Shown here piece after piece: positions 56,019-64,000 of a DNA stretch of 64,000 bases (within the stretch, counting starts at the first letter, position 1; each line of letters begins with the position of its first letter). Both the position numbers and the translations under genes were made by a program. The notes below the pieces were generated by a model. That model did no database searches. It saw nothing but the letters and a program-made list of their open reading frames with translations, and was not told where the DNA came from. The stretch spans positions 129,814 through 193,813 of the forward strand of contig OY762933.1 of assembly GCA_963666765.1 (NCBI GenBank), read 5' to 3'. This DNA is from Gammaproteobacteria bacterium. GTDB lineage: Bacteria; Pseudomonadota; Gammaproteobacteria; Steroidobacterales; Foliamicaceae.

Positions 56019-57184
56019 TCAAGCGGGACGCTCTCGCTCCCGGGAGGAGCGACCCGGCCCTGTCGCATCGCATCGTCAGTTTCGTGCGCACGCTGCGCGC
56101 CGCGGGTTTGCCGCTGGGCGTGGGCAAGAGCGCGCTGGCGCTTGAGGCCGCGAAGCGCATCGACATCGGCAACCGCGCCGAGTTCTCCGCTGCGCTGCGC
56201 TCGGTCCTGACCGTCAGTCCCGCCGAGGGCGTGCTGTTCGATTGCGCTTTTCCCATGTTCTTCGGCAACTCCGCGGCCTTTGCGCGGCTTGGCGACCTGC
56301 ATGAGCTCGGTCTGCGTTCTCTGGGCGACGTCAAGCCCCCGCCGGGAGCCCTGCGCCTGCTGCGCGCCATGGACAGCGCATCCAACCTGATTGCCGCGCC
56401 CGGCGCCCAGCGGGCCATTGCGGGCGCCGGCTATTCGCCGCAGGAACGGCTCGCCTCCAGGGACTTCGCCCAGATGACGCCGGAGGAACAGGACCAGGCG
56501 CGCGAACTGCTGCGGCGCGGCGTGCTCTGTCCCAGGCGCAAGGGAAGGCGATACAAGGCCGCCGCGCATGGAGCGCGGATCGACCTGCAGGCCACTTTGC
56601 GGGCGGGCCTCGCGTCCGGCGGCGAGCTGGCGCAACTGAAGCGCAAGACGCGCCGTGACGAACCCATGTCGCTGGTGCTGCTGTTCGACGTTTCAGGCTC
56701 CATGACCACCTATGCACGCATGGCCATCCATTTCGCCCACGCGCTGTGCAGCGCCCGCCGCAACGTCGAAGTGTTCGTTTTTGCAACCCGCCTGACCCGG
56801 GTGACCCGCGAACTGCGCGGGCGGGATGGGGACGTGGCGACCGCCGCGGCGCTCGCGGCCGCCCCGGACTGGGAAGGGGGCACGCGCATCGCGTCCGCCA
56901 TTGGCCAGTTCAACCGGCAATGGTCGCGGCGGGTGCTGGCCCGGCCCGGCATGGTGCTGCTGTTCAGCGATGGCCTGGAGCGGGCCTACGTCGAAGAACT
57001 GCGTTTCGAGGCGGCGCGCCTGCGGCGATCCTGCAAGCGCCTGGTATGGCTGAATCCGCTGCTGGGCTATAAGGGTTTCCAGCCGCGGGCCCGCGGCGTG
57101 CTTGCGCTGCTGCCCGCCGTGCACGAGCATCGCGCGGCCCATAACGTCGAAAGCCTGCTGGGGCTTGCCGACGCGTTAGAGTAG
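56015..57184 (+). CDS. coxE: VWA-domain protein (CoxE-like)
   Basis: GTG 56015 overlaps the coxD stop (GTGA). MIDAS motif LLFDVSGSM. The last ~68 codons are duplicated at 62962..63174. Confidence 0.85.
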   Translation: MIKRDALAPGRSDPALSHRIVSFVRTLRAAGLPLGVGKSALALEAAKRIDIGNRAEFSAALRSVLTVSPAEGVLFDCAFPMFFGNSAAFARLGDLHELGLRSLGDVKPPPGALRLLRAMDSASNLIAAPGAQRAIAGAGYSPQERLASRDFAQMTPEEQDQARELLRRGVLCPRRKGRRYKAAAHGARIDLQATLRAGLASGGELAQLKRKTRRDEPMSLVLLFDVSGSMTTYARMAIHFAHALCSARRNVEVFVFATRLTRVTRELRGRDGDVATAAALAAAPDWEGGTRIASAIGQFNRQWSRRVLARPGMVLLFSDGLERAYVEELRFEAARLRRSCKRLVWLNPLLGYKGFQPRARGVLALLPAVHEHRAAHNVESLLGLADALE

Positions 57185-57279
57185 GCCGCTACACTTGCGC
57201 TGTAGAGTGGAGAACCATCAAGATCAGCACATTTCCATTGCCATAGTCACCGGAATGCCCCACAAGCTGGAATTTCCTG

Positions 57280-58929
57280 CTATTGATATAAGAATGCCGC
57301 GGCACTGGAAACTCGGTTCAGTGTGGAGCGCACCTCGTATAGCAAATCGTCTGCTGGAATATCAGGGTCTTGACCGGCCATCTCGTATCCCAGTGCCATT
57401 GAATATTCCGAGAAGGCAATTTCATACGACAAACGTCGAAACGCCAGATCCTCCGGACCACCCGTCTTGAGTGCTTTAGCTACGACTGGATGATCAAGAT
57501 TAATAATGATCCGCAATGCTGCATCGTCATATACAGATCGTGCTTCGTCAGAACCCAGGTTTTCGTAGCCAACGCTGAAGCCGCCTTTTGGTTTCCGGCG
57601 TTTTCCTGATCCTCCCGATGGTGATACGCTATCGACACCCGCCGGATTTGGTAAGCCGCTTGCTTGCAATTGAGGATTGGGGCGGTTTTGTGGTTTCCTC
57701 GACTCGGTGACGGTTGTCATTTCAGGCTTGTCCACATCGCCCGGAGTGTCAATTCCTTGGATCCAAGATGAATGGTCCTCCCCAGCTGATTGTCCAGAGC
57801 CAAACAGGGAGGTTGCCGAACCCGCTTTTGATGTGGCTGAGCGAATTTCCGCTAACCGATCTTGCACTCGCCGAAAGTCATCGTTCAGGACATCAGAGAT
57901 CTTATTTGCTTCCGCCGCCAACCTACGTGCCTGTTCTGATCGCTGTTCATTCCTATAGTCCTCAGCTAATTGTTTTCGAACCCTCTCCAGGTTTGCACCG
58001 AGAAAGCCGACCAAGACACGAACAACCGGGTGCTCTGGGTTTAGTTGTAAGGAGCGGGAATCGTCATAGGGCTCAATCCGAGATTCGAAAGTCTCTATTG
58101 CCGGCACGTCAATTTCGCCAAACAAATAGGAGCCGTGATCCTTCCGCGTTATTCCACAATCTTCGATTCCCACTAAATTCCCGACGCCTGCCGAGATGCG
58201 GATTCCCCGATCGAATTCTTCCAGAGGTATTTTCGAAACCTTGACAATTAGTTCAACATCGCCAATGACTTTGCTCTGCTGATCTGATGGTCGAAACGAA
58301 TGAGTTGCCGCCGTGTCTGGTTCTTTGTAGTCGCAGACATGGTCGTTGACAGCCACAAAAGGCGCTGAACTCCGAAACACCTGAAGGTGCCGTTCAATGT
58401 AATCTACTATCGCTGGCATCGGAATCTTGTTTACAAAGATGTCCGAAATCGTGACTAACGTACCGTTGGGAAGTGTCGTTGGCTCGCCAGAAACAATATG
58501 CGTAACAGGAATGTCTCCCCCATCCGAAGCTTCGATATCCTCGCGCGTGAGTGCCGTGACGTTGCGTAATCCGTCTCGGCGGGTCTCGATTTTGAGGCAG
58601 TTACCAATTCCGAATGCGGCAGATTTTCCCGTGCCGAATTTTCCTCTGCCAGGTCGTCCTCTGGCTCGCTCGATATTCTCCGCATGCATGGTGAAAAAAT
58701 GCTCCAGCCCCTTTTGGTCCATGCCGCGGCCGTTATCGTCTATTTGGATGACCTTCTTTCGCGGAAAGAGCGTCACCTGCACGCGCGGCGATACGCCACG
58801 ATCGAGGTATTGCAAACTGTTAACTACGTATTCCCAAATGACGGCGGGCACATTCTTGAAAGCCGCCGCGGACGAGAGTAAATCGCGTCCGACATGTGAC
58901 GTTAAAGCTAGCGGACTATTGGTATTCAT
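57280..58929 (-). CDS. GHKL-superfamily (MORC/Hsp90-type, HATPase_c_3-like) ATPase with coiled-coil and disordered basic region
   Basis: 549 aa. Bergerat motifs: I WEYVVNSLQY (E..N), II IQIDDNGRGMD, III GRGKFGTGKSAAFGIG. Charged helical stretch (RKQLAEDYRNEQRSEQARRLAAEANK), low-complexity S/G/P/K region, then an uncharacterised ~110-aa C-terminal domain. Confidence 0.75.
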   Translation of the reverse strand: MNTNSPLALTSHVGRDLLSSAAAFKNVPAVIWEYVVNSLQYLDRGVSPRVQVTLFPRKKVIQIDDNGRGMDQKGLEHFFTMHAENIERARGRPGRGKFGTGKSAAFGIGNCLKIETRRDGLRNVTALTREDIEASDGGDIPVTHIVSGEPTTLPNGTLVTISDIFVNKIPMPAIVDYIERHLQVFRSSAPFVAVNDHVCDYKEPDTAATHSFRPSDQQSKVIGDVELIVKVSKIPLEEFDRGIRISAGVGNLVGIEDCGITRKDHGSYLFGEIDVPAIETFESRIEPYDDSRSLQLNPEHPVVRVLVGFLGANLERVRKQLAEDYRNEQRSEQARRLAAEANKISDVLNDDFRRVQDRLAEIRSATSKAGSATSLFGSGQSAGEDHSSWIQGIDTPGDVDKPEMTTVTESRKPQNRPNPQLQASGLPNPAGVDSVSPSGGSGKRRKPKGGFSVGYENLGSDEARSVYDDAALRIIINLDHPVVAKALKTGGPEDLAFRRLSYEIAFSEYSMALGYEMAGQDPDIPADDLLYEVRSTLNRVSSAAAFLYQ

Positions 58930-58931
58930 TG

Positions 58932-59540
58932 CTATTCACCTTTACTCACTAACTGCGACATGTCTGTTAGGAAACTCGAAATCTCAGGGTCATTGCTAAA
59001 TAAATTCAACAATCGATCGATTTTTAGACTCAGCATATCGGGCTTCGTATAACTATCAATCCTAAATATTTCTTTGGCCTGAGTAGCCTTAACGGATTGC
59101 GGATTCTCCTGCCATTGTCGCCATGCTGCGGACGACTGCAGTCTCTTGGATTCTCGATCGGTCCGTACCGTATCGACTGAACCAGCACGACGAGATTCAT
59201 TGGATCCCAACGAAAAATCACATTCAAGTAGATTGAGGTTGGCCTCAATCCACTTGTTGCCTGTGGCTGTAAGCGCCCAGCCTTTCCGCCCTGATCCTCT
59301 CAATAGTGTTCCCTTGTCGGGCTTCTTTGCATTCGACAAGCAAACCCGGACTAACTCAAGATTTATCTGTTTCGGGTACTTGCGCCAGCCGAATCGACGT
59401 GGTGCAAGTTCGAAAGCCTTGATGGCAACATCTTCCGTGTCAATGAATCTCTGAGCGCCACCTAGCTGGTAGACTGCTAGTGTGACTATTTCTGATTGTC
59501 CAATCTCTTTTGTCAAGTGTTTATTTGAATATTTTGACAT
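58932..59540 (-). CDS. hypothetical protein, possible winged-helix N-terminal domain; co-operonic with the GHKL ATPase
   Basis: 202 aa. The stop TAG lies 2 nt before the ATPase ATG, with AGGTGA inside its 3' end. The N-terminal ~100 aa (EIVTLAVYQLGGAQRFIDTEDVAIKAFELAPRRFGWRKYP...GWALTATG) looks wHTH-like by eye only. Confidence 0.6.
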   Translation of the reverse strand: MSKYSNKHLTKEIGQSEIVTLAVYQLGGAQRFIDTEDVAIKAFELAPRRFGWRKYPKQINLELVRVCLSNAKKPDKGTLLRGSGRKGWALTATGNKWIEANLNLLECDFSLGSNESRRAGSVDTVRTDRESKRLQSSAAWRQWQENPQSVKATQAKEIFRIDSYTKPDMLSLKIDRLLNLFSNDPEISSFLTDMSQLVSKGE

Positions 59541-59590
59541 GGCAATATACTATAGCATCTACTTCAAGTATGTTTCTTGGGATGTAAACA

Positions 59591-61861
59591 TTGACAAATG
59601 GTCGGGCCTGGGGCTTACCAAGCGTCCAGCTACTTCCCGCATCTCTAGGAAAACTGTGGGCTGGCGAAGAGCTGCCGTCTTGGGTAGTTACGCTAGGGCA
59701 ACTACCGTCGGGTGCAAGAATAGAGGACCTATGTAGACCACTACCCCTTGAACTTGAAGCAAATCACTTTGGTCGTTTGGTGAGGTTTGTTCTTAATCTC
59801 GTGCGAGGGCGAATCGGATCGATTGACTCAATCCAAACCGTTGAAACTGATTTTTTCGCAGGACTTCGACCGGAAAAAGTACCGTGGTCCCGAAGAACTG
59901 AGAGATGCTTGCGACAAGCAGGCCTGATGGAACGGCCATCTGACCTATGTCGGCTCACCTTTGGTGACTTACTACGGATTCCAGGTATCGGAATTCGTTC
60001 CGCACTTGAATTTGCGGTCATGCTCGAGATTTATTCTCGACGCGCATCTGAAAGAACTGGAGTCGATACTATTGAGATGATTGATGAGAAAGAACGGAGA
60101 CGGGAACTTCTAGTGCAAGAAGCGAGTGATCTTGATCAGCCGAAGACATATGTCTTGACTCAAGATTCCGATCAGCAGGTCTTGACTCTAGACGGGGCGC
60201 CAAAAGAGCAACAAGAGGACATATTAATTGACGCGGCTATTCAGCCATGGGCAGATCAGATTAGCGGTAGTGATCGGCGTTTTTCGGATCTTCTTGGTTC
60301 TAGTTCTGTCGTATTGATTGAGCGCATCGAAGACGCGTTGGATCGAGATAATGCTGCCGAAGCCGATGCTCTTGCCCGTATTCTCGGCCCGTTAAAGGAA
60401 AGAATTGAGAGGATCGAATCTCTATCCTTGGAAGACGCGTTGCTGGAACTCTTCAATGCGGCCACTGGAGACTCGCGCGACCGAAATCGTGAATTGATTC
60501 GGCGGTTTGGATGGAATGGTGAGCCACCAGAAACGCTCCAGCAAGTTGGTGATCGCCTACGCGTAACGCGTGAGAGAGTCCGTCAAATTCAATCCCGAAT
60601 CGTTCGCAATCTACCAACGCATTCCGTGTTTCTGCCCCAGCTGCAAAGCGCGGTTGATGTCTTGGAAGAAGTTAGCCCGATAGCAATTGAAGATGCCGCC
60701 AAGTTGCTCCAGGAACGAGGAATCAGTCGGCGTCCTTTCCACCCGAAGAGCGTCATAGTTGCAGCTAGCGATTGCAACATTGTGACGCCCTTAAGAATCC
60801 AATCGATCCGCAGAAAGAAGATTGTCACAGCCAAAACTGGCGATAGAGTGGTAAGACGCTTGGCCTCTATAGCACGTGCGCAGAGCGGAGCAAGTGGCGC
60901 AACTGATGTGCTTGGAGTTTTGGACCAAGCCATGAAAGAAGAACTGATCTTTGAAGAAGAGCGCGCCGCCCGGTTGATTCGCAGCCTTCCGGACCTCCAA
61001 TGGCTTACAAACGATTGGTTTTGTGTCCGTTCAGTCCCAATTGAGCGAAATCGTCTTCGCAATGTTGCCCGGAAGATGCTCAGCGTAACCTCACCAATCC
61101 ATGCGGGAAAAATCCGAGCAGGTATGCGAAGAACTGTGACTTGGCGAAACGCAACTTGGAGCCAACACCGTTGGCCTATGCGTGCGCCACCCGAAGTTGT
61201 TGTTCGACAATTTCTTAAGAATCATCCGGAGTTTACGGTTGAAACTGAAGGCTTGGTCTATCCTGCAGAAGAATTGGACTACCGGAATGAGCTTGGCGCT
61301 GCAGAATGCCACATGGTTGATGCTATTCGTTCTACGCCTGCCGGAGTATTGGATCGACAATCAATTCGAGATAGTTGCATAAGAAAGGGGGTCAATCCGC
61401 ATACGCTAGAAGTGAGTTTGACCTACAGCCCGGTAATAGAACATCTTGGCGTTAACCTTTGGGCGATTGCAGGGGCGAACGTTGATCCCGCCGCCGTCGA
61501 AGCCGTTAGGAAAGCGAACGCTTTGCGGCCGAGGGAGAAACGCATAAGCGATTTCGGTTGGACCGATAAAGGAGAAATATGGATTTCTGTAATTATCCCC
61601 TCCTACCATACGTCATCATTTGTCTTCGGCGTGCCAGGCGGAGTCAAGAAGTTCCTAGTTGGCCAACGGTTTAGAGCAAGGGATGACTTGGGGAGAGCGT
61701 ATGGAGATGTTGTCGTGAACCCTGAAGGTACTGCCTATGGGGCAGGCCCCCTGCTTCTTCGAAAGGGTGCTGACTCGGGAGATATAGCCCTGTTCAGATT
61801 TGATCTGTCAGGAAATATTGTCACCATTAGCGTTGGTGGTGATGAATTATCAGAGGGTTGA
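59591..61861 (+). CDS. large protein with RNAP alpha-CTD-like HhH module and sigma-70 region-4-like HTH; C-terminal ~400 aa uncharacterised
   Basis: 756 aa from TTG (no in-frame ATG near the 5' end). Residues ~99-146 WSRRTERCLRQAGLMERPSDLCRLTFGDLLRIPGIGIRSALEF resemble alpha-CTD (..VRSANCLK.AGI....DL......ELLKI.NFGKKSL.EI). Residues ~301-341 ELIRRFGWNGEPPETLQQVGDRLRVTRERVRQIQSRIVRNL match sigma r4.2 (TLEEIG..FGVTRERIRQIE.KALRKL). No sigma region 2 is seen. Confidence 0.7.
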   Translation: MTNGRAWGLPSVQLLPASLGKLWAGEELPSWVVTLGQLPSGARIEDLCRPLPLELEANHFGRLVRFVLNLVRGRIGSIDSIQTVETDFFAGLRPEKVPWSRRTERCLRQAGLMERPSDLCRLTFGDLLRIPGIGIRSALEFAVMLEIYSRRASERTGVDTIEMIDEKERRRELLVQEASDLDQPKTYVLTQDSDQQVLTLDGAPKEQQEDILIDAAIQPWADQISGSDRRFSDLLGSSSVVLIERIEDALDRDNAAEADALARILGPLKERIERIESLSLEDALLELFNAATGDSRDRNRELIRRFGWNGEPPETLQQVGDRLRVTRERVRQIQSRIVRNLPTHSVFLPQLQSAVDVLEEVSPIAIEDAAKLLQERGISRRPFHPKSVIVAASDCNIVTPLRIQSIRRKKIVTAKTGDRVVRRLASIARAQSGASGATDVLGVLDQAMKEELIFEEERAARLIRSLPDLQWLTNDWFCVRSVPIERNRLRNVARKMLSVTSPIHAGKIRAGMRRTVTWRNATWSQHRWPMRAPPEVVVRQFLKNHPEFTVETEGLVYPAEELDYRNELGAAECHMVDAIRSTPAGVLDRQSIRDSCIRKGVNPHTLEVSLTYSPVIEHLGVNLWAIAGANVDPAAVEAVRKANALRPREKRISDFGWTDKGEIWISVIIPSYHTSSFVFGVPGGVKKFLVGQRFRARDDLGRAYGDVVVNPEGTAYGAGPLLLRKGADSGDIALFRFDLSGNIVTISVGGDELSEG

Positions 61862-62136
61862 TAAGGAAGGAGTTAAGGACATCATTCCTTTCGAGGAGAA
61901 AAACCCAATGCTCCACCGTGCCGCTAAGCGTCGCTCGCTATCCGCCCAACTGCTTGCCGCTGATCCGGTTTGGCCGTACCCGTTTCGCAATCCCCCAAAA
62001 CAAGAAGAGCTCGAAAATACGACCGGACATTTATGTGCTCTAAAATCGGACAAGTTTTGTGCTCTCTACACGAGCAAGGAAAGGCGAGCGTTGCCGCTAT
62101 ATGGTGGAACCCCTATAATCCGGAAAGACGGACGCA

Positions 62137-62511
62137 ATGTTGAAACCTCTCGAATGGATTGGGTCAAGCAAAGCGGATCTGAAGCAATTTCCCGATTCCG
62201 TGCAGGATCGCATGGGCTTCGCGATCTACCAGGCGCAGGCGGGTCTAAGGCACCGCGACACCAAAGTGCTGAAGGGCTTCGGTTCCGGTGTCCTGGAGAT
62301 TGTCGTGCGCCACGACGGCAATGCGTACAGGGCGGTTTATGTCGTCCGTTTCGAAGCTGCGGTCTATGTCCTGCACGCCTTCCAGAAGAAGGCGAAGCGG
62401 GGTATCGTCACACCCAGGAAGGAAATCGAGCTGGTCCGGAACAGGCTCGGTGCGGCCAAGAGGCATCACCGCGAAACGCTTGAGGGAAGACAAGACAATG
62501 AACCCATCTGA
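62137..62511 (+). CDS. RelE/HigB-like toxin (phage Gp49-like type)
   Basis: 124 aa. MLKPLEWIGSSKADLKQFPDSVQDRMGFAIYQAQAG...VLEIVVRHDGNAYRAVYVVRFEAAVYVLHAFQKKAKRGI matches this toxin family's consensus as I recall it. Confidence 0.85.
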   Translation: MLKPLEWIGSSKADLKQFPDSVQDRMGFAIYQAQAGLRHRDTKVLKGFGSGVLEIVVRHDGNAYRAVYVVRFEAAVYVLHAFQKKAKRGIVTPRKEIELVRNRLGAAKRHHRETLEGRQDNEPI

Positions 62512-62836
62512 TTCGAACGTGGAGGCCAGCAGCGGCAACGTTTTTGCGGACCTGGGGTTCCCCGGGGCCGATGCCCATCTTCTAAAGGCGGAACTCGTCA
62601 GCCGCATCGACGGCCTCGTGCGCCGGCGTGGCATCAGCCAGGCTGCGGCCGCGCGGCTGCTCGGCCTTGCCCAGCCGGACGTCTCGCGGCTGCTCAGGGG
62701 CGACTTCCGCGAGTATTCACTGGAGCGCCTGTTGCGCCTGCTGACTACGCTTGGCTGCGACATCGACATCGTTATCCGCCCGCAGCGCTCGGCAACGGGC
62801 GGCAGGCTGCGCGTGGCCGCTGCCGACACGGGCTAG
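62498..62836 (+). CDS. XRE-family HTH antitoxin (HigA2-like)
   Basis: ATG 62498 gives MNPSDSNVEASSGNVFADLGFPGADAHLLKAELVSRI...GISQAAAARLLGLAQPDVSRLLRGDF. Overlaps the toxin 3' end by 14 nt. Confidence 0.85.
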   Translation: MNPSDSNVEASSGNVFADLGFPGADAHLLKAELVSRIDGLVRRRGISQAAAARLLGLAQPDVSRLLRGDFREYSLERLLRLLTTLGCDIDIVIRPQRSATGGRLRVAAADTG

Positions 62837-62961
62837 ACGCGCAAGGGTGAGCGAAGCGAAGGCAGGGACGTCTTTCAGGAGTCAGGTTGGACTGCGTGCC
62901 GCCCGGAATCGTGCCCCGCGAGCTTGAACTGCCGCATAGGCACTATCACAACTCCGTTACC

Positions 62962-63174
62962 GAGCGGGCTTACGTCGAAGAACTGCGTTTTGAGGCGGCG
63001 CGCCTGCGGCGATCCTGCAAGCGCCTGGTATGGCTGAATCCGCTGCTGGGCTACAGGGATTTCCAGCCGCGCGCACGCGGCGTGCGCGTGCTGCTGCCCG
63101 CCGTGCACGAGCATCGCGCGGCCCATAACGTCGACAGCCTGCTGGGGCTTGCCGCCGCGCTGGAGGCTTGTTGA
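62962..63174 (+). pseudogene. orphan duplicate of the coxE 3' end (island-distal repeat)
   Basis: Reads ERAYVEELRFEAARLRRSCKRLVWLNPLLGYRDFQPRARGV..LLPAVHEHRAAHNV.SLLGLA, versus the same string at the end of coxE. About a dozen nt differences by eye. No upstream VWA body. Confidence 0.8.
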
Positions 63175-63231
63175 AATGCAGCCTGCTTTCGTCCGCCTTG
63201 AACGCTGCAACACCTGCAACGGAACGGCCAT

Positions 63232-63606
63232 TCAGGTCGTCAGCGTGAGTCCCGAGTTTTCCAGCCGGAGGAAGTCCGCTTCATTGGCGGTGGCGAGGGC
63301 CGCGCCGTAAAACAGGGCCGCGGCCGCGATCATGCAGTCAGGCAGCGAACCGCGGCGGCGACCTGATTCGTTGAACAGGCGGGCCGCGATTGCGGCCTGC
63401 TCCTCTGTAAAATTGTGGCGCTGTCCCACGACTTCCCCGGCGAATTCCAGTTCATCCGGCGTGAGTGGCCCGCATAGCAATTCGGCCCAGGCAACCGCGC
63501 TCATACTCAATGGTTCGCCGGCTTCGACCCACCCACGCAATCTCCGGTCTTCCGGCGACCCGTGGGTAAGAGCCCGGATCAGGAAGCTGGTGTCCAACTG
63601 GATCAT
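63232..63606 (-). CDS. vapC: PIN-domain toxin
   Basis: 124 aa. MIQLDTSFLI... (first acidic residue), ...LATANEADFLRLE (last acidic residue). Overlaps the antitoxin stop by 4 nt. Confidence 0.88.
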   Translation of the reverse strand: MIQLDTSFLIRALTHGSPEDRRLRGWVEAGEPLSMSAVAWAELLCGPLTPDELEFAGEVVGQRHNFTEEQAAIAARLFNESGRRRGSLPDCMIAAAALFYGAALATANEADFLRLENSGLTLTT

Positions 63607-63893
63607 TGCGCTTTCGAGAGCACCCGCTTGCCGGTTTCGAGGCGCTCATCGTTTACTTCCTGTTCCCACCCCGAGAGATCAACCCCCCGCTCCCGCACGG
63701 AGGATTGCAGCCGGTCCAGCGCGTGCAAGGGGCCTGTTTTCTCCGGGCGGGTACTGGAAGCTGCAATGCGAATGGCCCTTCGCAGGACTTCAGACTTGGA
63801 AACCCTCCATCGCTGCGCCAGCGCTTCAAGCGTACGGACTGAGCCCACATCGAGGGTGTAGGTTGACTTGATAGTGGGTATGGCCATACTCAA
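63603..63893 (-). CDS. vapB: RHH/CopG-type antitoxin
   Basis: 96 aa from TTG 63893 (or ATG 63887). ...LEALAQRWRVSKSEVLRRAIRIAA is a ribbon-helix-helix signature. Confidence 0.8.
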   Translation of the reverse strand: MSMAIPTIKSTYTLDVGSVRTLEALAQRWRVSKSEVLRRAIRIAASSTRPEKTGPLHALDRLQSSVRERGVDLSGWEQEVNDERLETGKRVLSKAQ

Positions 63894-63909
63894 AGTATAT
63901 GGCCATATA
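63878..63909. promoter_or_regulatory. tandem palindromic operators at the vapB start
   Basis: GTATGGCCATAC (63878..63889) and TATATGGCCATATA (63896..63909). Both are perfect palindromes sharing the core TATGGCCATA, with centres 19 bp apart. Confidence 0.6.
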
Positions 63910-64000
63910 TATGCTCGTCAATCTACATTGCCGTATCGGATTGGGGCCGGGCAATTGGGCTACCATTGAGGGTAATGTTTATCAGCATGCACATTCTGCC

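Follow-up and report, generated by a model that had tools for sequence, protein, structure and literature searches.

A widespread three-gene cassette linking a GHKL ATPase to a protein with sigma-70 region 4 and further predicted DNA-binding modules

We analysed a stretch of 64,000 nucleotides (nt) of a gammaproteobacterial genome (Steroidobacterales, Foliamicaceae; GenBank assembly GCA_963666765.1, contig OY762933.1, positions 129,814 to 193,813 of the forward strand), which is called the window below. It harbours a cassette of three genes, here named the trio, which encode an ATPase of the GHKL superfamily, a small protein and, in the opposite direction, a large protein with several predicted DNA-binding modules. 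In window coordinates, the locus is organised as follows:

57280-58929, minus strand: gene of the GHKL (HATPase_c_3) ATPase, 549 amino acids (aa); based on the open reading frame (ORF), Pfam, NCBIfam, the AlphaFold2 (AF2) model and Foldseek
58932-59540, minus strand: small partner gene, 202 aa, located directly 5' of the ATPase gene, with which it is translationally coupled
59541-59590, no strand: intergenic spacer of 50 bp, AT-rich, with divergent promoters (-35/-10-like, central, visible in homologous loci)
59591-61861, plus strand: large gene, 756 aa, TTG start, for a multi-DNA-binding-domain protein

An initial annotation, made from the letters and an ORF list alone, had given these three ORFs with coordinates that agree exactly with the ORF list of the window, and it had described an AT-rich spacer of 50 bp and an island of lower GC content, which we confirmed (GC 0.48-0.54 over 57-62 kb vs ~0.65 elsewhere). 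The stop codon of the small gene lies 2 nt from the ATG of the ATPase gene. After the in-frame stop at 59585-59587, the large gene has no start codon but the TTG at 59591, and the N-terminus of its product lines up with those of homologues. A scan of the region for consensus promoters and terminators gave no more matches than expected by chance.

The neighbourhoods of the trio were gathered by exact look-ups and from 68 loci of a one-genome-per-species scan, which was searched with hidden Markov models of the three protein alignments. In essentially every locus with enough flanking sequence the three genes are adjacent. The small gene lies immediately upstream of the ATPase gene in all loci, usually overlapping it, while the large gene is adjacent throughout and mostly divergent. 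Three gene orders exist overall: besides the divergent one, the large gene is found upstream on the same strand in loci such as L033-L035, L040, L054-L056 and L069, and downstream in L049, L051, L052, L065 and L072. The gene content is the same despite the changing order, and this is strong evidence for a three-component system. No fourth conserved gene was found among the neighbours; the trio is a strict three-gene module. Its hosts belong to at least ten phyla and include Gamma-, Alpha- and Deltaproteobacteria, Acidobacteriota, Actinomycetota, Chloroflexota and Planctomycetota, and further Gemmatimonadota, Nitrospinota, Bacteroidota and Armatimonadota. Thus, the co-occurrence of the three genes as neighbours, which the initial annotation had proposed as a check, holds across phyla in the 68 loci.

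The search with the ATPase returned 1,544 clusters at 90% identity (E <= 0.001, 8,000 candidates scored), and the best 120 matches are full length and mostly ~55-60% identical. For the small protein 939 clusters at 50% identity were obtained, nearly all of the best 150 being about 200 aa long, and homologues of the large protein were found at 32-57% identity. Compared in the same 24 loci, the ATPase has a mean pairwise identity of 56%, the small protein one of 46% and the large protein one of 39%; by this measure the large subunit is the fastest-evolving of the trio. In several loci (L004, L016, L030, L037, L043, L059, L061, L062, L064 and L066) trio genes are split or truncated, which reflects either frequent decay of the cassette or frameshift errors of metagenome-assembled genomes (MAGs) and long-read sequencing. 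In L004 it is the large gene that is broken; L005 and L006, with an identical ATPase, have an intact partner.

The ATPase can be divided into five parts:

58420-58929, minus strand: GHKL domain, aa 1-170 (Pfam, motifs, AF2)
58030-58419, minus strand: alpha/beta middle domain resembling Hsp90-M, MORC and the GyrB transducer, aa 171-300 (AF2, Foldseek)
57829-58029, minus strand: coiled coil of 65 residues, aa 301-367 (AF2)
57586-57828, minus strand: disordered linker, aa 368-448 (AF2)
57283-57585, minus strand: conserved beta3-alpha3 C-terminal domain, aa 449-549 (AF2, alignment)

With 51.7 bits against HATPase_c_3 (Pfam cut-off 25), the protein belongs to the GHKL superfamily, within its MORC/MutL-like branch. 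The three Bergerat motifs pointed out in the initial annotation, E33..N37, DDNGRGMD and GRGKFGTGKSAAF, are indeed present and invariant across the family: E33, N37, D65, G69, G94-K102, N155 and T157 do not vary, and G156 is found in at least 90% of the sequences. The absence of a transducer domain, which had also been noted, stands at the sequence level, where no match to an S5-fold second domain was obtained. It appears not to stand at the level of structure, since the AF2 model (mean pLDDT 71) aligns in Foldseek over ~390 columns with the N+M domains of TRAP1/Hsp90 (3e-13), the DNA-bound MORC2 ATPase (3.5e-11) and ParE/GyrB 43K (4e-11). The target-normalised TM-score to MORC2, TRAP1 N+M and ParE 43K is 0.45-0.52, at a root mean square deviation of ~8 A. 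Profile searches against PDB sequences gave weak matches to GHKL N-terminal domains only. The N-terminus finds its best match in the GHKL domain of the BbrUII/HgiDII restriction enzymes (4.5e-13, far under the family cut-off); it also matches phrog_6203, a phage family of unknown function, and the PADLOC match of the ATPase is to the REase_II model and generic or sub-threshold. The C-terminal domain contains many invariant acidic and His residues.

The large protein was modelled by AF2 with a mean pLDDT of 85. The following modules were recognised, of which the first resembles the RNA polymerase (RNAP) alpha subunit's C-terminal domain (alpha-CTD):

59873-60046, plus strand: alpha-CTD-like helix-hairpin-helix (HhH), aa ~95-152 (AF2 model, homologue alignment)
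60476-60625, plus strand: sigma-70 region 4 (r4), aa 296-345 (Pfam, PDB profile)
60635-61474, plus strand: four winged helices, aa 349-628 (AF2 helix-plus-hairpin units, Foldseek)
61538-61840, plus strand: B3-like beta-barrel, aa ~650-750 (AF2, Foldseek)

In the model, the helical N-terminal region with the HhH is followed by a disordered insert (aa 156-201) and then by a helical domain in front of r4. The r4 module, which the initial annotation had already recognised, is confirmed by 33.1 bits against Sigma70_r4 in Pfam and by a profile match to RpoD region 4 among PDB sequences (5e-13); besides it, Pfam and PDB profile searches found nothing in the window protein. Its recognition helix, (T/S)RERxRQ, is invariant in ~60 loci of all clades and aligns with VTRERIRQI of E. 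coli sigma-70, with 46% identity over r4.1-4.2. Residues of this type read the -35 hexamer in holoenzyme-promoter structures. All 30 members scanned with Pfam carry Sigma70_r4 alone, without sigma region 2, and the PDB profile also matches region 4 only; a sigma factor of the sigma-70 family was rejected for lack of region 2 in these 30 members.

The second element of the fusion proposed in the initial annotation, the alpha-CTD, is borne out for the family and is not detectable in the window protein itself. The latter gave no match to PF03118 (cut-off 23.8 bits), and its residues 90-155 gave no BLASTP alignment with the E. coli alpha-CTD sequence. Weak PF03118 matches are present in nine of 30 close homologues, and distant members score 25-82 bits against the same cut-off, often with two copies and together with Sigma70_r4. 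These alpha-CTDs fall at profile positions 90-143, which correspond to aa ~95-150 of the window protein. Judged from the alignments, the alpha-CTD + sigma-r4 fusion therefore appears real at the family level, and an alpha-CTD in the window protein is suggested by its homologues.

For the array of four winged helices, Foldseek found tandem winged helices of SelB (WH1-4), ESCRT-II and STK19, and for the C-terminal domain plant B3 DNA-binding domains with a probability of 0.99-1.0; the E-values of the domain matches are weak (6e-3 to 5e-2) because the query is a multidomain protein. Against viral structures, Foldseek gave nothing significant for the large protein. The initial annotation had supposed that an effector may be hidden in the C-terminal 400 aa. 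This was not borne out: four winged helices and the B3-like barrel fill this part, and therefore no enzyme is concealed there. According to the model, the whole protein would be an array of nucleic-acid-binding modules. In actinobacterial loci two tandem paralogues of the large protein exist, which span the part from r4 to the C-terminus only.

The small protein has no match in Pfam, NCBIfam, PADLOC, PHROGs or PDB sequences, and a Pfam scan of 33 homologues gave only noise, so that its description as winged helix-turn-helix (wHTH)-like in the initial annotation was not confirmed in any library scanned. A comparison of the small with the large protein by hhalign was not significant, with a probability below 1%. 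The pairing it returned places aa 132-172 of the small protein ('AW..W..G...V..EA.EVFRID') against aa 297-333 of the large one (r4.1/4.2), and as a weak lead the C-terminal half of the small protein may be a helix-turn-helix. The two partner families of the ATPase are unannotated and merit family definitions.

A conserved DNA element was found around the divergent start region. In the window it is represented by two boxes and accompanied by a third hexamer:

59510-59526, minus strand: box 1, A-rich tract, N3 and TTGACAA (TTGACAA at 59510-59516, hexamer at 59511-59516), inside codons 5-10 of the small gene
59584-59597, plus strand: box 2, TTG start plus ACA of the large gene (TTGACAA at 59591-59597), following GTAAACA
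59534-59539, plus strand: third TTGACA, overlapping the ATG of the small gene

The boxes were analysed in 37 non-redundant loci with divergent gene order. There, TTGACA and its complement are the commonest hexamers of the start region and occur 54 times, compared to 3.3 +/- 1.9 (maximum 11) in shuffled sequences. They occupy two fixed sites, and each is oriented in the sense direction of its host gene and thus faces outward. One box lies ~24 nt inside the small gene and specifies a conserved Leu-Thr pair; the other is found at the extreme 5' end of the large gene, with a constant distance to the Trp-Gly codons. The reading frame of the latter varies, from the TTG start plus ACA of the window to, e.g., GTT-GAC-AAC elsewhere. 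Of 38 Leu-Thr pairs, 27 are encoded by TTG-ACA, while the codon usage of the same genes predicts 3.5% (binomial P ~5e-31, a value inflated by the shared ancestry of the loci). The loci with boxes span GC contents of 0.45-0.68 and several phyla. Both boxes have the consensus A-tract (5-6 A), N3, TTGACA(A), and the starts of the two hexamers are separated by 74-75 bp or 84-88 bp (by 69 bp in L038), the two spacing classes differing by one helical turn; in the window the distance is 75 bp. Taken together, the sequences show that the boxes are conserved at the DNA level.

The two boxes of the window are among only five TTGACAA sequences in 64 kb. Another of the five is located at 58241-58247 on the plus strand, within the ATPase gene in antisense orientation. 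The third TTGACA could be the -35 element of the large-gene promoter or an extra operator; the same ATGTCAA arrangement at the start of the small gene is present in the acidobacterial loci L017, L018, L024 and L026. In Actinobacteria (L044-L047, L057 and L061), which have no TTGACA boxes, two tandem GTAGTAAGTGTGCGA-like repeats were found ~20-80 nt upstream of the small gene.

Because the boxes lack a -10 partner and are directed away from the central promoters, they are not the genes' own -35 elements. At bacterial promoters, the alpha-CTD recognises the A-rich UP element and region 4 of sigma-70 recognises the -35 hexamer TTGACA, and Estrem et al. are said to have shown in 1999 that it is the A-rich proximal UP subsite that is read by the alpha-CTD. 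By analogy, an A-tract just 5' of TTGACA would match joint reading by an alpha-CTD and a sigma region 4. Most simply, the large protein would bind the boxes and thereby autoregulate the cassette, and the boxes suggest binding of promoter-type DNA rather than mimicry of RNAP alone. They also offer a cheap and immediate biochemical handle on the trio.

The trio is part of an inserted island in the cox operon region, which contains the following additional features:

56978-57181, plus strand: direct repeat, left copy, 204 nt, 3' end of the intact coxE-like VWA gene; left island boundary
62962-63165, plus strand: direct repeat, right copy, 93% identical, orphan coxE 3' fragment beside VapBC; right island boundary
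62137-62511 and 62498-62836, plus strand: Gp49/HigB-like toxin and HTH_37 antitoxin, co-inserted cargo outside the conserved trio

Since the two copies of the 204-nt repeat bracket the island, the insert comprises ~57182-62961. The repeat looks like the scar of a homology-facilitated insertion of donor DNA with its own coxE end, not like the att site of an integrase. Alongside the coxE repeat neither an integrase nor a tRNA gene is present; the whole 64-kb window lacks tRNA genes, and 56500-64000 lacks Rfam matches. The toxin-antitoxin (TA) pairs that the initial annotation had seen downstream of the trio were confirmed as the Gp49/HigB-like and HTH_37 pair and the PIN/RHH VapBC pair that follows it; the former is missing from the relatives L075 and L077.

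In these relatives, the trio occupies the same site between cox and the glutamate dehydrogenase gene, with 80-98% protein identity and different cargo. In L075 (9534-15756), genes for ResIII, PIN and an N6_N4 methyltransferase, resembling a type III restriction-modification (RM) system, are inserted between coxD and coxE, and in L077 (11712-12869) an AAA_14/DUF4143 gene lies between coxE and the trio. Around the cox operon, the close relatives thus have a hotspot of variable content. More generally, the two ORFs nearest to the trio on either side were scanned in 37 loci, 146 ORFs in all. The most recurrent neighbour families are Eco57I-type N6 methyltransferases (5-7 loci of different phyla), integrases and transposases (6) and AriAB/AAA_15-21 (2). 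The context of the trio is accessory and laterally mobile, and fits a defence hotspot. Around it there is a moderate enrichment of methyltransferases, integrases and genes for TA or defence. The defence setting proposed in the initial annotation is supported by a moderate island signal, while housekeeping genes in most flanks and empty phage collections speak against it.

The initial annotation could not assign the trio to any named system, and this was upheld: when the three proteins were scanned against PADLOC, NCBIfam and PHROGs, nothing beyond generic or sub-threshold matches appeared, and no description of the trio was found in the literature searched, which covered few subscription-journal papers. 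We conclude that the trio is real, widespread and undescribed in these resources and this literature. Several known systems resemble it in part. The MZA system (mzaABCDE; Gao et al. 2020; NF041931, NF041932) is likewise an accessory cluster, in which the sigma-70-like MzaA is combined with MzaB of the MutL/GHKL type, and MzaA of the validated system carries a sigma-like domain (PMC9523054). Membership was rejected: the trio scores 36.1 bits for MzaA and 11.6 bits for MzaB, against cut-offs of 800 and 850, no better than RpoD/RpoS and MutL.

The prokaryotic MORC and paraMORC proteins (Iyer, Abhiman and Aravind 2008) resemble the trio in the predicted ATPase architecture and in a sporadic, laterally mobile distribution. 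What defines these families is an operon context of SF2 helicases, endonucleases and methylases (PMC2292703). In contrast, no helicase or nuclease recurs among the neighbours of the trio, a methyltransferase adjoins only 5-7 of ~45 loci, and the fixed partners are a promoter-reader protein and the 202-aa protein. The large protein can be compared with PglW of BREX type 2/Pgl, in which an alpha-CTD-like domain followed by three wHTH modules forms the nucleic-acid-binding part of a defence protein (PMC12839542). The likeness to the large protein is one of arrangement, with an alpha-CTD-like helical domain in front of tandem wHTH modules; PglW has a kinase and an inactive STAND ATPase, but neither sigma r4 nor a B3-like domain. 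With the RNAP holoenzyme the large protein shares, at the level of the family, alpha-CTD and sigma r4, often at 2:1, the invariance of the -35-reading residues and an A-tract upstream of TTGACA. However, it has no sigma regions 2 and 3, alpha-NTD or core-binding parts, and the boxes have no -10; lacking these parts, the protein is neither a sigma factor nor an RNAP subunit.

GHKL-fold proteins beside or inside bacterial immune loci are also known from CapK/CapS, which regulate an adjacent operon, and from VcSduA. In the former, CapK, a small kinase of the SpoIIAB type, has a STAS-domain repressor as its substrate (PMC13373217), and the GHKL-Shedu protein VcSduA carries a DUF4263 nuclease (PMC12137116). 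The former was rejected, as the ATPase of the trio has 549 aa and is of the HATPase_c_3 type and its partner has no STAS match, and so was Shedu of the VcSduA type, as no DUF4263 PD-(D/E)xK match was obtained in Pfam or PADLOC. Two further candidates failed at the family thresholds: BbrUII/HgiDII (NF050001; 48.6 bits vs 550, with only aa 24-203 aligned to profile positions 18-207 of 659) and Hsp90/HtpG (10.9 bits for the HtpG equivalog vs 371, the structural likeness being limited to the N+M domains).

Based on these data, we favour with moderate confidence the view that the trio is a self-contained, horizontally spread, nuclease-free and ATP-driven module which acts on promoter-type DNA, likely in conflict with phages or mobile DNA. 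The large subunit would probably bind the two A-tract-N3-TTGACA boxes around its own divergent promoters, thereby autoregulating the cassette, and would probably recognise strong UP/-35-type promoter DNA elsewhere with the same reading heads. The GHKL ATPase, MORC/Hsp90/MutL-like and with a coiled coil, would form together with its obligatory 202-aa partner an ATP-driven dimerising clamp or remodeller. The response would be carried out by this clamp, acting either on DNA or on the large subunit, e.g. by occluding promoters or entrapping DNA. The three proteins may act as one complex, with foreign DNA or phage transcription as the presumed target.

Several points weigh against this interpretation. 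A role in defence is plausible but unproven. As noted in the initial annotation, the trio contains no recognisable effector; indeed, Pfam, NCBIfam, PADLOC and PDB profile searches detected no effector domain, be it a nuclease, TIR, SIR2 or pore domain. Most flanks of the trio are housekeeping genes, neither the 50,697 phage records nor the 2.9 million contigs of IMG/VR that were searched contained relatives of the trio, and the plasmid collection contained a single distant relative of the GHKL ATPase, on a Rhizobium chromid and without both partner genes. The structural matches of the large protein's domains are weak by E-value in spite of high probabilities, and the P value for the boxes is inflated, as mentioned above. 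The UP-element analogy of the boxes rests on the consensus of Estrem et al., and the boxes lie in the 5' part of the mRNAs, where they could act at the level of RNA. Neither clades with non-divergent gene order nor Actinobacteria have the boxes, yet their r4 helix is the same, and no covariation between helix and box supports the pairing. The invariance of the helix in box-less clades implies that covariation is unusable and that the r4 head serves a function beyond self-regulation.

A bolder version of the same idea, which we regard as rather unlikely, is a nuclease-free immunity or silencing machine, in which readers borrowed from the upstream part of the RNAP promoter complex would either find strong UP/-35 half-promoters on incoming DNA or be dislodged by a phage anti-sigma factor, whereupon the MORC-like clamp would occlude or compact the DNA. 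If true, a machine that reads incoming DNA would be the prokaryotic counterpart of the silencing of invasive elements by MORC, with promoter architecture as the non-self cue. Should the trio function in conflict as proposed, it would in any case be a widespread addition to the prokaryotic repertoire, with more than 1,500 ATPase clusters, trio hosts from at least ten phyla, neither a nuclease nor an NADase effector, and a specificity module that mimics the promoter-recognition surface of RNAP. It would then be testable whether bacteria use promoter architecture or the targeting of RNAP by phages as an immune cue, and whether DNA clamping and silencing of the MORC type, known from transposon control in eukaryotes, is ancestral in bacteria.

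Alternatively, the trio could control host genes as a non-immune accessory module for transcription or chromosome structuring, similar to a xenogeneic silencer or a stress-responsive global regulator. The housekeeping flanks, the stable inheritance at the same site in three related genomes, an architecture of DNA-binding and ATPase parts only, the apparent autoregulation and the presence of rpoD as immediate neighbour in two loci all fit such a role. What makes it improbable in our view is the patchy phyletic distribution with 52-59% ATPase identity across phyla, combined with the anomalous GC content and the insertion scar, the changing cargo of the hotspot, which includes RM and TA genes, and the decayed copies in several loci, traits that are typical of accessory or selfish genes.

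It is also conceivable that the alpha-CTD and sigma r4 are baits, which mimic RNAP surfaces attacked by phages, be it by anti-sigma factors of the AsiA type or by enzymes modifying the alpha-CTD. Binding or modification of a bait would free the large protein from its TTGACA operators and switch on the ATPase arm. The identity of the r4 helix with that of primary sigma factors in all clades, the box-less ones included, is in line with such a guard or decoy, as is the presence of two alpha-CTDs and one r4 in many members, which equals the stoichiometry of the holoenzyme. In addition, MzaA of MZA also has a sigma-like domain (PMC9523054), and the box data are compatible with the idea. However, the conserved residues are those that contact DNA, and cognate boxes exist, so plain DNA binding explains the conservation; no precedent was found in the literature searched. 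We consider baits with a phage trigger doubtful.

The next alternative, a restriction-like system with a cryptic nuclease, appears still less probable. The ATPase's C-terminal domain or the small protein would cut DNA recognised by the large protein, as in paraMORC and BbrUII/HgiDII, and a methyltransferase would protect self DNA in some loci. B3-like domains occur in the restriction enzymes EcoRII and BfiI, the ATPase N-terminus is closest to the BbrUII/HgiDII GHKL domain and matches the PADLOC REase_II model, and its C-terminal domain is rich in invariant acidic and His residues. Moreover, the Eco57I-like methyltransferases beside the trio in 5-7 loci of different phyla are homologous. [quoted passage not shown] The loci with M.Eco57I-like N6-adenine methyltransferase homologues are L009, L021, L033, L034, L037 and L042; in four loci the methyltransferase is joined by a conserved protein of ~300 aa (214-325 aa) without known family. 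Such loci may represent a methylation-linked subtype or a co-travelling RM system.

Last, a machinery of mobile elements (transposition, integration or partition) or a diverged MZA member is largely refuted and highly improbable, even if the cassette sometimes stands alone between housekeeping genes, the island is bounded by the 204-nt direct repeat and weak MzaA and MzaB matches exist; a transposon was rejected, as no terminal inverted repeats or target duplications surround the trio in five loci.

Among the neighbours of the trio, a full-length rpoD gene adjoins it in two unrelated loci, at 2370-4295 of L036 from a proteobacterial MAG and at 4473-6314 of L063 from a member of the Pelagibacteraceae. 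This adjacency is far above the expectation for random insertion; either a functional link or recombination across the segment that codes for r4 could account for it.

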